DNA from: a virus
Taxonomy: Duplodnaviria; Caudoviricetes
IMG/VR virus record: IMGVR_UViG_3300005937_000010
Span: 8,089 to 72,088 of that record
Length of the DNA stretch: 64,000 nt
Direction: 5' to 3' (one strand)
Positions 15,095 to 49,724 of the stretch are shown here, one piece after another. A program made the position numbers and the translations under genes. Within the stretch, counting starts at the first letter, position 1. Each line of letters opens with the position of its first letter. Under the pieces are notes generated by a model. That model had not been told where the DNA came from. It did no database searches and worked only from the letters and a program-made list of their open reading frames with translations.

Positions 15095-15399
15095 CCACCC
15101 GGAACGATGATTCCGCCGACGCGGTAGCTTGGCATGTCCTGCACGAGCCGCATCGGCATCTGCGCCCACTCGTCCTCGACGGCCGCGAACGCAGTGAGCG
15201 TTTGGTGGTGATCGCCGCCGAGAGTGCGGCGAATGCTGCGGTATGCGTCATACGCGCGGAGGAAGTCCATCACCCACGGAGACTCCACGCCCTTGAGGCC
15301 GAGGCTCTGCCCCGACACGTCCTCGACCTCGTAAAGCTCTCCGGCGACAATCACCATCTCCATCCCCGGCGCTACCGATAGCTTGTCAGGCTGTTCCAT
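15091..15399 (-). CDS. Hypothetical protein
   Basis: AAGGAGG RBS before MEQPDK. Confidence 0.6.
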   Translation of the reverse strand: MEQPDKLSVAPGMEMVIVAGELYEVEDVSGQSLGLKGVESPWVMDFLRAYDAYRSIRRTLGGDHHQTLTAFAAVEDEWAQMPMRLVQDMPSYRVGGIIVPGG

Positions 15400-16716: not shown

Positions 16717-16910
16717 GTTTCCAACTGCGCATGGACGTTCGTGACGACGGCGATCCTCGGCTCAGCGAGGACGAACTCCACGAAGCTGTCCGCGAGCACG
16801 CGCCTGACGGCATCCTCAAGCTTGTAGGCGACGGTCATCACCGCATCCTCGGCGCAGACGAACTCAATGTCCATCGCCACCTTGGCAGGTACTTTCGCAA
16901 TCTCTTGCAT
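16713..16910 (-). CDS. Hypothetical protein
   Basis: GGAGG RBS preceded by CCCGAAAC and CCCGAAC. Confidence 0.6.
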   Translation of the reverse strand: MQEIAKVPAKVAMDIEFVCAEDAVMTVAYKLEDAVRRVLADSFVEFVLAEPRIAVVTNVHAQLET

Positions 16911-17005
16911 CTTTCCTCCGTTCGGGTGTTTCGGGCTGAGGCGGCGACTGTCAGGGGGTTGCCTGGAACAGCCGCCGCTCGCGGAATCCTACAACGTCGC
17001 GGCGA

Positions 17006-24140: not shown

Positions 24141-24344
24141 CTAGACACGGACGGACTCCGGCAGCACGATGGCTCGTGCTGCCTCCGCTGCCGCGTAGAG
24201 CTTGGCAGCCATCGGACTCGTGGTGTCCTCGGACGCGCGCAGCGTGTCCTCCACGAGCCATACAGTGCGGAGCCGTCCAGTCCGGACGGACTCCACGCGC
24301 TGGCGCTCCGTGGCGCTGGCGCTGGACTTGCGATTACTTGGCAT
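24141..24344 (-). CDS. Early hypothetical protein
   Basis: MPSNRKSS; CCCGAAC plus GGAGG leader. Confidence 0.55.
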   Translation of the reverse strand: MPSNRKSSASATERQRVESVRTGRLRTVWLVEDTLRASEDTTSPMAAKLYAAAEAARAIVLPESVRV

Positions 24345-24783
24345 GTCTGCCTCCGTAGGTTCGGGTGGAGCCTCGCAAGCCGCGAGGCACTGCCAAGATA
24401 GCACACGGCTGCGGCTGTCTGCCAAGTCCTCGCGCGAGGCTGCCTGCCAAGCTCGTGCTACGCTCGCAGCCTTGCCAGCTAGACGGAGGTAGACATGCCA
24501 GGACGGTAGTCCGCTGGACATAGACGGAGCACGCCACACGAGCACGGCCGCGAGGCCGTGCGGCTTGGCATGCTCGCGGACTGCCTGGCGCGCTGGCGTG
24601 CCTGGCTGCCTCCGGCTGCCTCCAGGACGGCCGCTCCGGCGTGCCTCCAGGACGGAGGACGGACGGCCGCTCCGAGGACGTGGAGCGGCCGTCCAGCGCC
24701 GCGCGCTCCGAGGACGTGGAGCGCCGCAGCGGCGTGCTCGCGGCTGCCATGCCACGAGCCGCGAGCGGTAGCCAGCCTACCAA

Positions 24784-24829
24784 GTTAGTGGCCACTAACA
24801 TGTGACAAGCCGCCCGAAGGCGGCTTGTC
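24784..24829. terminator. 16-bp perfect palindrome followed by UUCG-loop hairpin
   Basis: GTTAGTGGCCACTAAC; GACAAGCCGCC-CGAA-GGCGGCTTGTC. Confidence 0.55.
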
Positions 24830-24863
24830 CTGGCACGGCGACATCGGTCAAACTTGCCTGGCA

Positions 24864-25109
24864 TCACACGGCTGCCAAGCTTGGCTCGTACGCGGCATCG
24901 AACATGTTTGGCACGTCCAGGACGGCGAACGGATGCCGGAAGCATTCCAGCGCTCCGGCGCGCGTCGTGGCGTAGAGCGTGTGGATGAGGACTCCGTGCC
25001 AGTCCAGGACGTGGACTTCGTAGCCATCGTCCACGCCACCCATGTAGAGCACCACGCTGCCGCCGTTGCCAGGGATCGTCCTCGCGTCTACCTCGATTCT
25101 CTGTGTCAT
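24864..25109 (-). CDS. Early hypothetical protein
   Basis: CCCGAACCGAACCGGAGG leader. Confidence 0.65.
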   Translation of the reverse strand: MTQRIEVDARTIPGNGGSVVLYMGGVDDGYEVHVLDWHGVLIHTLYATTRAGALECFRHPFAVLDVPNMFDAAYEPSLAAV

Positions 25110-25169
25110 AGCTACCTCCGGTTCGGTTCGGGAATCGGCGTTGTTTTTGTTTTCGTTTTTGCTTTTGCT

Positions 25170-25379
25170 TTACGGCTTGGCAGGAAACACGTCCAGGACT
25201 TTTCCGTGGTAATCAATCCGGAACATGTCCTCCTGCATATTCGTGGCCGCGAATGTCACGCGGCACGGAGCTTGGCACGTGTGCGGGCTGTCGCCAGCCT
25301 GCGCGAGCACGGCGGTGTAGAGCACGGCCGCAACGATGCCAAGCACGAGGCTGGCTGCTAGCGTGGCTGCGAGCTTCAC
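25170..25379 (-). CDS. Small secreted or membrane protein
   Basis: GTG start; N-terminal hydrophobic helix. Confidence 0.5.
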   Translation of the reverse strand: MKLAATLAASLVLGIVAAVLYTAVLAQAGDSPHTCQAPCRVTFAATNMQEDMFRIDYHGKVLDVFPAKP

Positions 25380-25708
25380 GAGTAGAACCGTCCCATCACG
25401 ACGCGCTCCGCGTCCACCGTGCCGTCGTCCTCGCGCACGTAGCGGATGAGCCACCCGGAGAAAAACGTGTCCGACATGTAGCCGTCCCACACTGCCAAGG
25501 GCGAGTCCTCCGGGCCAGTCCAGCGGGTGAACTCGTCCAGCGGCACGAGGCTGCCCTTGTACCGCACGAAGCTGGCGCTATCGCGCCCGTCCTCGATAGC
25601 TTGCCAGTCCAGGTAATCGAAGTCCTCGCGCTCCGCGAGCGTAAGCTCGTGCGCCTCCACCACGTCGCGCGGCACGTTGTTCGTGATGATCGTAAGCTTG
25701 TCATCCAT
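25376..25708 (-). CDS. Phage early hypothetical protein
   Basis: TIITNNVPRD...FDYL...WDGYMSDTFFSG; CCCGAAC plus GGAGG leader. Confidence 0.7.
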   Translation of the reverse strand: MDDKLTIITNNVPRDVVEAHELTLAEREDFDYLDWQAIEDGRDSASFVRYKGSLVPLDEFTRWTGPEDSPLAVWDGYMSDTFFSGWLIRYVREDDGTVDAERVVMGRFYS

Positions 25709-27701: not shown

Positions 27702-28643
27702 CTAGCGCCGTGCCTTGGCAGCGGCCTTGCCCTTACCCTTGACCGCTGTCGCCCGCGTCCGCGTGGCCGGAGCCTTGCGCGAGGCCGCAGGCTTGCCCTT
27801 CGGAGCCGCTGTGCGGGCCTGTGCGGGCTTGCGAGTCGCAGGGGCAGCCTTGCCCCTGGCCGGAGCGGGCTTGGCCGCAGCGGGCTTCACAGCGCGCCGC
27901 GTACGCGTCGTCTTCGGCCGGACGGCCGCGCGAGCCTCGCGCCTGCGGATGTCGTTCGGCTTGGTGCTCGTGCCGTACGCTGCCCGCTCGCCCGACTCGT
28001 GCTGGCCGGTGGCCTTCACGAAGTCCAGGGCCACGCGCCCGATGAGCCAGATGACCATGCGGTCGGCCGCGTGCTTGTCCTTGTCCGGGTACCAGCGCGT
28101 GGCGTGCCGCTTGACCTCCGCGAAGACCTTGGCCTTGTCACCCCGGTGCTTGCGCAGGCTGTCCATGACGATTCCGCGCTTGCTCGCGGAGCCGCCTTTC
28201 CAGTCCGCCGTCCAGTCGATGGCGCTGTTGTCGATGCGCACCGCGTAGCCTTCCGCCGCCTGGCCGCGCGTGCTCGTGCGCTTGGCAGCCGGAGCCGCCT
28301 TCGGAGCCGCCTTGCGCGCGACCGGCTTCGTCGTGGTGGCCTTGCCCTTGCCCTTCGCGGGCGCGACCGTGCGCGTGGTGGGCTTGGCAGCGGGCTTCGC
28401 CGGAACGGCCTTGCCCTTCGCCGGAGCGGCGGGCTTGCCCTTGACGACGGTCGTGGCTGCCGCCTTGCCCTTCGCTCCGTTGCGCCCGTTGGCGCTCGTG
28501 GCAGTCTTGCCCTTCGCGGGCTTGCTCGTGCGCGTCTGTGCCTGCTCCACGAGCTTGCGCAGCGTGGCGGGCGGGATCTTGCGGTAGTCCTCGATTCCCG
28601 CCTGCTTGGCCTTGGCCCACAGCGTAATCATGTCCTTGTCCAT
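27702..28643 (-). CDS. Histone-H1-like basic DNA-binding protein
   Basis: AKP/KGK-rich arms flank a ~100-aa globular core; short helical N-terminal domain; GGAGG RBS. Confidence 0.75.
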   Translation of the reverse strand: MDKDMITLWAKAKQAGIEDYRKIPPATLRKLVEQAQTRTSKPAKGKTATSANGRNGAKGKAAATTVVKGKPAAPAKGKAVPAKPAAKPTTRTVAPAKGKGKATTTKPVARKAAPKAAPAAKRTSTRGQAAEGYAVRIDNSAIDWTADWKGGSASKRGIVMDSLRKHRGDKAKVFAEVKRHATRWYPDKDKHAADRMVIWLIGRVALDFVKATGQHESGERAAYGTSTKPNDIRRREARAAVRPKTTRTRRAVKPAAAKPAPARGKAAPATRKPAQARTAAPKGKPAASRKAPATRTRATAVKGKGKAAAKARR

Positions 28644-47598: not shown

Positions 47599-47638
47599 CG
47601 GGTGCCACGCTCTCGTAGTTCTGTGGGTCGTCAGGCAT
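47462..47638 (-). CDS. Hypothetical protein
   Basis: AAGGAGG RBS. Confidence 0.45.
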   Translation of the reverse strand: MPDDPQNYESVAPDEGDKIINTNEAISNPQKRVADPKIKGAKDVRKEGVQIVTRRGTT

Positions 47639-48989
47639 TGGGCCTCCTTTTGTTCTTGGCAGCTTCCAACTGCTCGTTCTCAACAGCCTCCGCTTCGTCA
47701 AGACCCTCATCGTAGTAGCTCCAATCCGGCGCATTGTCGTACTTGGTAACGCCGGTATTGGCATCGAAGTAGACCTCGTAGCGGAACCCCTGTCCGAACC
47801 GGCTCTTGCTGCACCGCACGATCAGGCGGCGCTCCTGGCTGACGTGCTTGACTCCGATCACGTAGTCGCTCAGGTGGTTCAGTTGCTTGCTCCCGAAGCC
47901 ACCCGCCTTGTGCGGAGCGTCCTCGCGGGCACGGATGCTGTCGCCCTCGTGCGCCTGGTTGGAGAAGACGATGGGAACGTGGTAGCGCTCGCTCAGGACG
48001 TGGAGGCTCTCCGCGATCCATGCCGTCTCCTGCCAAGTGTTGCCCTCGCGGTGGTAGCGCACCGGCTTGAGCAGGTAGATGGGATCCACGAGTACCAAGT
48101 CCAGGTCAAGCTCCACGATCCTGTCCTCGATGTACCCGACGCCCATCTGATCCTTCATGCCCGTGCCTGCCAAGAGATGAATCTGCCCCGGCATCTCCCG
48201 CAGGTACTCGCAGAAGCGCTGGTACGCCTTGAGGTTGAAGCCCTGCCGGTGCATGAGGGCGCGGTTGCGGAAGCTGTGCTTGATCCCAAGATCGAGCTTG
48301 ACCATCGGGTCGGCGCTTGCCAAGGTGTGGTAGCGGCACCGAGTCTCATGGGCATTCTGCTCCGGCGAGAAGATCCCCACGTTCTTGTGCTGCTTCTTGG
48401 CGTGCCACCCGAACGCGACCATCTTGTAGCTCTTACCTTCCCCTGTCCTGCCAAGCACTTCTATGAACTGGCCGGGGAGGAAGCCGCCGAGATGGTGGTC
48501 GAGCCAGGGGTCGCCGGTCAGCACGCCAATGGTCATTCCCTGCTTGGCAAGGATCATCCCCTGGCGCATCTCCTCAACCACCGGCTCCCACTCGTCCAGG
48601 TCGATGTCGCCCAGGGGCATGTGCTTGCGGGTGACGGCCGTGAGCCTGTCCCGCATCTGCATCGCCACGTCCACGGCGTTGTCCTTGTTCACGCTCTCTG
48701 CCAAGGTGGCCAGGATCGTGTTCACTTCTTCAAACGCACGTTCTTCTTTCAACTCCTGTGCCAAGTCCTCGATGCTCTCCCGTGGCATCCGCCACTCAAA
48801 GTCCGGGAAGCGCTCCGTGAAGACACGGCGGTTCAGGGTCTTGCGCCTGCCAAGACGATTCTCGATCCAGACGAACTCGTCCTCGTAGATCGGAAAGTCG
48901 GCACGGGAGATGCCATTGGAGTACAGCTTACGAAGGGCGGAAGCTCCGTCCTTCACGAGCACGGTGATTGTGAGCGATTCAATGCTCAT
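47631..48989 (-). CDS. DnaB-like replicative helicase
   Basis: GRTGEGKS, FSPEQ, LVLVDPIYL, VFSNQ, KSRFG. Confidence 0.9.
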   Translation of the reverse strand: MSIESLTITVLVKDGASALRKLYSNGISRADFPIYEDEFVWIENRLGRRKTLNRRVFTERFPDFEWRMPRESIEDLAQELKEERAFEEVNTILATLAESVNKDNAVDVAMQMRDRLTAVTRKHMPLGDIDLDEWEPVVEEMRQGMILAKQGMTIGVLTGDPWLDHHLGGFLPGQFIEVLGRTGEGKSYKMVAFGWHAKKQHKNVGIFSPEQNAHETRCRYHTLASADPMVKLDLGIKHSFRNRALMHRQGFNLKAYQRFCEYLREMPGQIHLLAGTGMKDQMGVGYIEDRIVELDLDLVLVDPIYLLKPVRYHREGNTWQETAWIAESLHVLSERYHVPIVFSNQAHEGDSIRAREDAPHKAGGFGSKQLNHLSDYVIGVKHVSQERRLIVRCSKSRFGQGFRYEVYFDANTGVTKYDNAPDWSYYDEGLDEAEAVENEQLEAAKNKRRPNA

Positions 48990-49042: not shown

Positions 49043-49061
49043 TGGGTACCTTCGGTACCCA
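49043..49061. other. GAA-triloop hairpin in AT-richer gap upstream of helicase
   Basis: TGGGTACC-TTC-GGTACCCA. Confidence 0.45.
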
Positions 49062-49149: not shown

Positions 49150-49446
49150 TCATCTCAAGACCTCGGTGCAAACGATCATGGCCTTCTTGAGCCAAACCCT
49201 TGTCACTCCATCAATAAGGATCTGGATGTCGTACCTGTCCACTTGCTCGATCAGGCCGACGACGGTTCCGTCGTAGTCAAGATCGTCTTCGTTGGATAGG
49301 TACGTCTCGCAGGCCAAAGCAAATCTCACCCTCGTGCCTTCGTTCTTGGCACGGAACAGGTCTTGGTCGTATCGGCTGTGCTCTCGCTTCTTCACTGGCC
49401 GTGCCACTGGAGGCGCACTGCCATCGTCATTGGTTTTGACTGCCAA
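49150..49446 (-). CDS. Hfq/Sm-like protein
   Basis: GLIEQVDRYDIQI...KKAMI aligns by eye with Hfq GQIESFDQFVILL...KHAI; TTG start after AAAGGAG. Confidence 0.55.
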   Translation of the reverse strand: MAVKTNDDGSAPPVARPVKKREHSRYDQDLFRAKNEGTRVRFALACETYLSNEDDLDYDGTVVGLIEQVDRYDIQILIDGVTRVWLKKAMIVCTEVLR

Positions 49447-49481
49447 GTCAACTCCTTTGTGTTCGGGAACGGTCGGGGAGT

Positions 49482-49535
49482 AGAAAGCGGGCCTCGGCCT
49501 TAGCAGAGGCCCGCTACCTCCCGAACCGGAGGAAT
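49482..49535 (-). ncRNA. Candidate small RNA or attenuator leader
   Basis: Starts just downstream of a promoter; 5' AUUCCUCCGGUUCGGG then a perfect 10-bp stem and UUCU. Confidence 0.4.
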
Positions 49536-49540
49536 GGCCC

Positions 49541-49568
49541 AGTCTACCGATTCAGGTGGGCAAGTCAA
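49541..49568 (-). promoter_or_regulatory. Sigma-70-type promoter of replication operon
   Basis: TTGACT-16-TAGACT. Confidence 0.6.
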
Positions 49569-49573
49569 GCACC

Positions 49574-49611
49574 CTCTGTGCGGCCACAGGAAGCTCTGTG
49601 CGGCCACAGGA
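49574..49611. repeat. Two identical 18-bp repeats, each with an internal palindrome
   Basis: CTCTGTGCGGCCACAGGA at 49574 and 49594. Confidence 0.85.
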
Positions 49612-49640: not shown

Positions 49641-49690
49641 GACGCCAGAGGCCGGGGGAAGGCGGGACAGCACTCCCCCGGCATGGCGCG
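49641..49690 (-). terminator. Long hairpin ending the late/lysis operon
   Basis: GCCGGGGGA...TCCCCCGGC with outer GCCA/TGGC. Confidence 0.5.
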
Positions 49691-49724
49691 TTCCGCCGTC
49701 TAGCGAGAATCGACGGCGAACTTG

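Follow-up and report, generated by a model that had tools for sequence, protein, structure and literature searches.

A conserved leader RNA and a gene for a protein of predicted Hfq-type fold at the head of a phage replication module

Does the RNA that precedes a phage gene for an Hfq-like protein act on other transcripts of the phage, or on the gene that it leads into? The question is raised by a 64,000-nt stretch of phage DNA (hereafter, the window), corresponding to bases 8089–72088 of a 72,088-bp IMG/VR virus record with direct terminal repeats. A preliminary description of the window had proposed that a promoter, a 5′ segment complementary to the leaders of several early genes, a hairpin and an Hfq-like gene follow each other, and that a short RNA made there could, together with a phage chaperone, shut off those early genes. 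We hold it reasonably probable that the locus consists of a conserved cis-acting leader, with two partners for its 5′ arm, heading a replication module in which the gene for the Hfq-fold protein comes first. The conservation of the promoter, the fold of the protein model, the covariation of the hairpin (P3) and the complementarity of the arm to proximal and distal segments of its own leader are documented below.

The locus, its relatives and its promoter

At the DNA level no cultured phage is similar to the window (G+C content, 62%). Its DnaB is only 22–25% identical to helicases of Gordonia and Brevibacterium phages, and the gene immediately upstream of the region, in which all genes are on the minus strand, contains an Rpf-type transglycosylase domain (PF06737). 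Taking into account these two features, an actinobacterial host is plausible. Actinobacteria are not known to encode Hfq; as the host itself is deduced from phage genes, any argument built on a host without Hfq is equally indirect.

The relatives compared here were obtained from a representative library, by look-ups by identity and with a DnaB profile. Searches for the locus by protein returned nothing from viral, genome or metagenome collections, nor did the DnaB-profile route in the genome collection. Wherever a relative holds both genes, the one for the Hfq-fold protein precedes DnaB (L001, L003, L005, L007 with one gene between, L016–L020, L022, L023, L027 and L028). It comes after tail and lysis genes and a gap of 200–350 nt, and before the genes for DnaB, primase, Pol III alpha and RecA. 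Coordinates are given in Table 1.

Table 1. Position of the features discussed in the text (window coordinates)
Feature	Coordinates	Strand	Basis or remark
Operator-like site, two direct copies of CCTGTGGCCGCACAGAG	49574..49610	-	Read from the sequence
Sigma-70/SigA-type promoter, TTGACT-16-TAGACT	49541..49568	-	Promoter scan and conservation in relatives
5′ UTR, ~89 nt	49447..49535	-	Putative transcription start at ~49535
5′ arm, CCUCCGGUUCGGGAGG	49517..49532	-	Complementarity and duplex scoring; proposed anti-leader seed of the preliminary description
Hairpin P3	49486..49515	-	10-bp stem (49515-49506 with 49495-49486), 10-nt loop
Proximal partner of the arm, P2 3′ strand, CUCCCCGACC	49471..49480	-	Duplex scoring and homologous helix in relatives
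Distal partner of the arm: CCCGAAC (49467-49461), ACAA, SD AAGGAG (49457-49452)	49452..49467	-	MFE fold and duplex scoring
98-aa protein of predicted Hfq-type Sm fold	49150..49446	-	TTG start, 5 nt after AAGGAG
DnaB-type replicative helicase, next gene downstream	47631..48989	-	Sequence comparison and synteny
Best arm complement outside the own leader, CCGAACCGGAGG	25115..25126	-	Leader of an 81-aa gene, start 25109

The promoter is the sole sigma-70-like site between positions 48900 and 49900, where 0.2 such sites are expected in shuffled sequences. Its hexamers are kept in L001 while the spacer has diverged, and the same pattern is found in more than 10 (about a dozen) more distant loci; in 11 leaders, TTGAC[ACGT] and a TANNNT-type -10 box lie at a constant distance from the hairpin (29–37 nt from the -10 box to P3). 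After the -10 box the text reads (A)UUCCUCCGGUUCGGGAGG. Hence the promoter and the 5′ segment of the preliminary description are both present on the minus strand, the former conserved in its hexamers despite the divergence of the spacer, and the perfect 10-bp stem reported downstream of them is found there as well. Within the operator-like site, each repeat copy holds an inverted repeat, CTGTG-N4-CACAG, and 5 nt separate the end of the second copy from the -35 box downstream. L001 has a single copy, and repeats of the CACAG/CTCAG type occupy the same place in L002, L003, L005, L011, L015, L016, L020, L022, L027 and L028. These repeats resemble a site at which a phage activator or repressor could bind. 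Over 40 kb, standard scans for promoters and terminators told little, as the genome shows no enrichment of canonical terminators.

Other elements were observed around the locus. Between the last late gene and the promoter lie two hairpins, A (49691–49720, minus strand; loop GAUUCUCGCUA) and B (49651–49682, minus strand; loop with UCCCGCC), neither of which has a U tail. Their stems differ and their loops are kept in L001, L003, L005, L008, L015, L016, L020, L022 and L027, and the loop of B is kept in L002 and L028 too. The loop of A shares CGCUA with that of P3. Both hairpins could be a 3′-UTR element or a separate small RNA. A search for the hairpin-A pattern in viral contigs gave a single match, in L013, which was discarded as unrelated coding sequence. 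Another hairpin, GGGUACC-GAA-GGUACCC (49044–49060, minus strand), lies between the Hfq-fold gene and DnaB and may end or process the transcript of the former; at the same place before DnaB, L001 has GGGGGUAC-UUCG-GUACCCCC, with both stem and loop changed. The sequence TGCCAAG / CTTGGCA is very frequent window-wide, on both strands and inside genes too, as well as in L016, L017 and L022, and occurs at the start of the Hfq-fold gene (GACTTGGCAGTC). A 0.5-kb non-coding stretch (24344–24870, minus strand) with many direct and inverted repeats, such as TGGACGGCCGCTCC...GGAGCGGCCGTCC, precedes a promoter-like site and a leader with a hairpin and a CCCGAAC box.

The protein of predicted Hfq-type fold

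The 98-aa protein has a basic disordered N-terminus, a helix (residues 25–36) and five strands. Its sequence gave no match in Pfam (E ≤ 10) or PHROG searches, nor in a tblastn search of 50,697 phage records. PF17209 had no match (E ≤ 10) anywhere in the 72-kb genome, and none of 51 family members matched the Hfq models at E ≤ 1. Alignment by hhalign reached a probability of 6.6% against an approximate reference sequence of the E. coli Hfq core. A sequence-profile search of the PDB returned a chance match only (ATP synthase epsilon chain), and a protein-language-model search sub-threshold leads only; the protein did not turn up in any longer, fused form, which is weak evidence. An exhaustive HMMER search recovered 49 cluster representatives, all of them small proteins. 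The family comprises about 50 clusters, all metagenomic, and is characterized by the motifs R-Y-D-Q-x-L-x-A-A-K-N, V-D-[KR]-[YF]-D and W-[LI]-K-K-x-x-[IV]-x-x-T-E; the window protein and that of L001 are 62–66% identical by different measures.

An AF2 model built from the family alignment (pLDDT 88.8) consists of a helix (25–36) followed by strands 39–44, 61–69, 73–78, 82–87 and 91–96. All top Foldseek matches in the PDB are Hfq, with TM scores by target of 0.73–0.89. In VIA-align, which is independent of Foldseek, the top 7 matches are again Hfq (Z 10.5–11.3; rmsd 1.3–3.1 Å, mostly 1.3–1.6 Å, over 60–68 residues, the entire Hfq core), followed by designed SH3 barrels (9.2), Sm proteins (8–9) and WYL domains (7–8). 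The best clusters in a fold search of the ESM Atlas are PF17209 and PF21979. The predicted structure is closest to Hfq in three structure libraries. The label Hfq-like, given to the gene in the preliminary description, stands as far as the fold is concerned: modelling of the monomer yields the helix and five-stranded sheet of the Hfq-type Sm fold, whereas at the level of sequence there is no match to Hfq models.

The proximal-face uridine pocket of Hfq comprises Q8, D40/Q41/F42 and K56/H57 of the YKHAI motif. When the family profile is aligned, weakly, with the approximate Hfq reference, the nearly invariant D70 and Y/F72 fall on D40 and F42. The phage proteins have W-[LI]-K-K-[AS]-x-[IV] where Hfq has Y-K-H-A-I, in a register taken from the model. 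A family which is an orphan by sequence, Hfq-like by predicted fold and tied to a fixed position heading a DnaB/primase/Pol III module is thus found together with a covarying leader RNA.

Hairpin P3 and the partners of the 5′ arm

A 5′ UTR of about 90 nt is conserved in 13 distinct relatives. The window leader folds with an MFE of -45.5 kcal/mol (z -3.9 vs shuffles). Between the window and L001 the leader is 87–88% identical, DnaB similarly so, and the flanking genes about 40%; by sequence identity, the leader is an island of conservation. An Rfam search gave no family, the sole match being scr5239 with 20.4 bits vs a gathering score of 64 (E 0.6), and the exact leader pattern had no match in viral contigs. 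We consider the leader a new, well-supported RNA motif suited to Rfam-type curation.

Hairpin P3 was analyzed in 11 distinct sequences, in an ungapped alignment anchored on the apical loop. Paired cells amount to 98.3%, vs 63% in shuffles and 37–52% in slid controls; in 9 of the 11 pairs both positions have changed, with a covariation score of 0.891 vs 0.20. G.U pairs are confined to the gene strand and thus point to RNA of that strand. A covariance model finds exactly one copy of P3 per locus and none elsewhere in the window, nor in L015, L023 or Gordonia phage GMA6, a distant DnaB relative which has no copy of the leader. The apical loop, GC-UACG-GC, is nearly invariant: a C.C mismatch, a G-C and a C-G pair and the tetraloop UACG, the apex in the window being a U.C mismatch, the same two pairs and UAAG. 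Other hairpins in these phages vary their tetraloops freely: the one before DnaB differs in its loop between the window and L001, and other strong hairpins of the window have GAAA, UUCG or GCGA loops. The invariance of the P3 loop suggests a specific binding factor.

Could the Hfq-fold protein be this factor? Hairpin and gene travel together: both are absent in L015, and P3 is altered or absent where the protein has diverged most (L020, L023). Such a co-loss is compatible with the protein binding the loop and equally with plain phylogenetic distance. Hfq and Sm proteins usually bind single-stranded U- or A-rich RNA rather than hairpin loops; the invariant loop may therefore be the site of a different factor. 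L015 (positions 1850–2000) retains both upstream hairpins (A and B), the promoter with its operator repeats and a CCCGAAC box, and a 43-codon ORF takes the place of P3 and the Hfq-fold gene.

The strict synteny with DnaB and primase and the iteron-like repeats upstream would also suit a replication accessory, i.e., an Sm-fold barrel associated with ssDNA or with the helicase and without RNA chaperone activity, in which case the conserved hairpins would function at the DNA level, as a replication origin or a site of single-strand initiation next to DnaB. WYL domains, which are Sm-like and bind ssDNA, do match the model (Z 7–8). We regard this explanation as very unlikely. Hfq matches clearly better than WYL (Z 11 vs 8), the residues corresponding to D40 and F42 of Hfq are present in the weak alignment, G.U (G.T) pairs are found on the gene strand alone, and the structure is placed exactly between the conserved promoter and the SD.

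The 5′ arm precedes P3. In the MFE fold of the window leader, the arm and the 5′ end pair with the leader's own CCCGAAC...AAGGAG stretch. We scored the arm of each of 13 leaders against two segments, the proximal one and the 24 nt that precede the start codon, with shuffle controls that keep base composition only. The window arm gives -14.0 kcal/mol with the proximal partner (z -3.0) and -20.7 with the distal one (z -4.3). The corresponding proximal and distal values are -19.6 and -21.2 in L001, -10.8 and -16.2 in L027, -17.4 and -16.7 in L003, -19.7 and -18.4 in L011, and -18.1 and -17.5 in L028, and most z-scores lie between -2 and -5. Both partners are significant in the window and in these five relatives, with a weaker signal in L005, L007 and L016; L002, L006 and L022 have a significant pairing with the proximal partner only. 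Overall, distal complementarity is significant in about 8–9 of the 13 leaders.

The sequence of the arm varies among the 13 relatives, and each arm pairs 3′ of the hairpin in its own leader. Helix P2, formed by the arm and the stretch just 3′ of P3, is kept with different sequences; it spans 12 bp in L002 and 8 in L016, and in L017 a C-to-U change keeps the pairing. Together with the covariation of P3, this amounts to a conserved 5′-UTR structure with compensatory changes. The most telling case is L027, in which arm and own box have changed together: the arm UUCGUUCAAUCGG is complementary to the altered SD-adjacent box of the same leader, CCGAAUGAACG-GAGG, at 10 of 11 positions. In L028 the arm contains UUUGGGA, which matches UCCCA boxes in its own leader, and this leader is the best partner of the arm among 26. 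As the arm covaries with RNA downstream of the hairpin, read-through RNA would be under selection, and the selected form would extend past the termination point proposed earlier.

Downstream of the P3 stem the window has UUCUACUCC, the RNA reading UUCUACU, and a pyrimidine tail follows P3 in all leaders compared. In L027 a P3 stem identical to that of the window is followed by UUUUUCCCUUUU, a U5 tail; in L005 there is almost no U run. A terminator scan placed P3 below standard criteria because its tail has too few U (in the window, UUUCUACU: three U, then C, then U). No competing structure overlapping P3 was seen in the folds: neither P2 nor the distal helix overlaps it, and hence no antiterminator is apparent. 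The window leader thus shows neither the U run nor the competing antiterminator of an intrinsic terminator or attenuator.

Occlusion of the SD in MFE folds depends on the assumed transcription start: one choice yields it in 5 of 9 leaders, and placing the start about 7 nt beyond the -10 box leaves it in no more than 2 of 11. A universal pairing of the 5′ end with the SD (P1) was dropped upon refolding from uniform start sites. Due to this sensitivity, the translational switch is something that we infer. The same sensitivity would favour a leader that acts chiefly on transcription or RNA stability (as a constitutive attenuator, a pause hairpin, a 5′ stem against RNase J/E, or an RNase III site), with neither an SD switch nor a link to the protein; so would the long coaxial helix, the tail after P3 and the position of the P2/P3 base, within a few nt of the putative 5′ end in all leaders, as the spacing between -10 box and P3 implies. 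This explanation appears unlikely to us, since it does not account for an apical loop that stays near-invariant while the stems covary and other phage hairpins swap their tetraloops freely, distal complementarity recurs in most relatives, and an attenuator would lack its competing antiterminator.

Other leaders and known systems

How do the cis pairings of the arm relate to its complementarity to other leaders? The 13-nt element CCCGAACCGGAGG recurs at 25127..25115 (minus strand) with one mismatch, and the leader of the gene starting at 25109 offers the arm 12 contiguous complementary bases, including the SD; the 12-nt perfect match claimed earlier for this leader is therefore real. The leaders at 16910, 24344, 25708, 26901, 36767 and 49446, also named in the preliminary description, do carry CCCGAAC followed after 0–5 nt by (A)GGAG(G), and CCCGAAC with GGAG(G) is also found before the starts at 28643 and 31793. 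The CCCGAA(C) box lies on the minus strand at 16925, 24364, 25131, 25726, 26920, 28668, 31813, 36786 and 49466, and at 15308 in L028; it sits 0–12 nt before the SD of non-structural genes. The box also occurs in relatives whose arm lacks complementarity to it, and is therefore an independent leader signal. A target ranking, which had been suggested as a check, was carried out on 180 crude translation-initiation regions by duplex energy with the 5′ 20 nt. The leaders of 25109 (-28.6 kcal/mol) and 25708 (-28.3) came first (mean -16.8, sd 3.9, n = 180), and the gene's own leader, with -21.9, was weaker than both. The arm thus has the complementarity to putative target initiation regions of a small-RNA seed (12 of 12 positions at 25109).

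In the partial genomes of L028 and L022, this seed–target pairing is neither kept nor covarying. The arm of L028 is not complementary to the box, and the CCCGAAC-bearing leader at 15330 of that genome scores about average with it; in the L022 record (30.9 kb) the arm has no outstanding leader target. A dedicated trans-acting anti-leader RNA is therefore not borne out, as the arms of the 13 relatives pair within their own leaders; nor is the arm conserved against the shared leader element, having changed together with its own box in L027 and mismatching the kept CCCGAAC in L028. The complementarity to other leaders arises because the distal partner in the gene's own leader carries the CCCGAAC-SD motif common in this phage, and is most simply read as that of a cis, two-state leader.

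Transcription that stops after P3 would produce an RNA of about 54 nt, whose arm would pair in trans with the early leaders carrying CCCGAAC and SD and, helped by the Hfq-fold protein, shut them off, the gene's own mRNA included. This we find quite unlikely. The 12 contiguous bases at 25109 and the near-perfect match at 25708, both scoring above the own leader, speak for it, as do the resemblance of P3 and its tail to the other strong, likewise U-poor hairpins of the genome, the U5 tail after the same hairpin in L027, where the arm would be a single-stranded 5′ seed, the (AAAAC)n-type A-rich spacer (25135–25172, minus strand) directly upstream of the 25109 leader and the co-occurrence of gene and hairpin. 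The promoter, which looks factor-dependent, would fit a middle-phase switch. Against this, the RNA with which the arm covaries lies beyond the proposed stop, the tails of the window and of L005 are poor in U, and the arms of L028 and of the L022 record match neither CCCGAAC leaders nor any outstanding leader. Moreover, the short form locks the arm in a CCUCC/GGAGG hairpin; the sequence bears out the caveat, already raised in the preliminary description, that CCUCC-GGUUCG-GGAGG can fold on itself. An RNA that ends early and acts in trans is conceivable, at least in the window lineage, and nothing in the data requires it. We give a similarly low probability to a cognate phage ribonucleoprotein, in which such a leader RNA on a phage Sm ring would silence the CCCGAAC-SD early leaders when the replication module is switched on. 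If true, the phage would bring both a small RNA and its chaperone into a host lineage without Hfq.

In the cis-acting reading that we prefer, a regulated promoter of the SigA type, its -35 box adjoined by the operator-like repeats, would drive the replication module, the first gene of which would encode a phage protein of Hfq-type Sm fold. The leader of about 90 nt would be a conserved cis-acting RNA comprising P3, its near-invariant loop and a C/U-rich tract, and the 5′ arm would have two mutually exclusive partners in the same molecule. Pairing with the proximal partner (P2, just after P3) would leave the ribosome-binding site free, and pairing with the distal one (CCCGAAC box and SD) would occlude it, so that the switch would determine how strongly the weak gene, with its TTG start, is translated. 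By binding P3 and the C/U tract, the Hfq-fold protein may hinder P2 and favour the occluded state, i.e., negative autoregulation. The transcription start, the read-through and any processing are putative in this model, and the arm fits the 25109 and 25708 leaders better than its own, a fit which a purely cis role would not require. The Hfq-fold gene and its leader nevertheless constitute a concrete, testable protein–RNA pair and, if the host is an actinobacterium and thus without Hfq, the phage protein could reveal the effects of an Sm-ring chaperone in such a host.

Several known systems resemble parts of this locus. Anti-SD small RNAs are known in Gram-positive bacteria, and RegA and RegB of phage T4 shut off early mRNAs at the SD. 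Like them, the window leader has a segment, containing CCUCC, complementary to SD regions of several non-structural genes; unlike the anti-SD RNAs, this segment is explained by pairing inside its own leader.

Among phage proteins, gp39 of the actinobacteriophage Adephagia is Hfq-like (PMC11373665). BFVD contains a 'Hfq-like domain-containing protein' of each of the Mycobacterium phages Phabba and Tonenili, to which our matches are weak (E of at least 2e-3). All of these resemble the window protein in being small, encoded by phages of high-GC Gram-positive hosts (a presumed host for the window phage) and Hfq-like by structure; none of the three has a described leader RNA, partner RNA or function.

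The PL-nutL-N region of phage lambda has a leader that is RNase III-sensitive and autoregulated by N. The window leader differs from it in having neither boxA nor boxB, and the protein in its fold. Common to both are a promoter, a leader hairpin with a conserved loop and a small basic regulator that comes first in a long operon, and in both the structure of the leader affects, or in the window phage would affect, translation of the regulator itself; we take this as a resemblance only.

Bacterial Hfq is an Sm-like RNA chaperone (PF17209) and, in E. coli, autoregulates its own mRNA via the 5′ UTR. The phage protein differs from it by a long acidic insertion between strands 1 and 2, a basic N-terminal tail and the lack of any sequence-level match to Hfq models; it is phage-encoded and linked to DnaB, and the likeness is one of predicted fold only. 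Within this limit, it shares with Hfq a predicted N-terminal helix and a five-stranded Sm barrel, superposed at 1.3 Å, and, in the weak alignment, an Asp and an aromatic residue at the positions of D40 and F42 and, in the register taken from the model, K-K at that of K56-H57. The leader of the phage gene itself, in which the SD is preceded by a hairpin, a pyrimidine tract and A-rich sequence, can be likened to that through which Hfq autoregulates its own synthesis.
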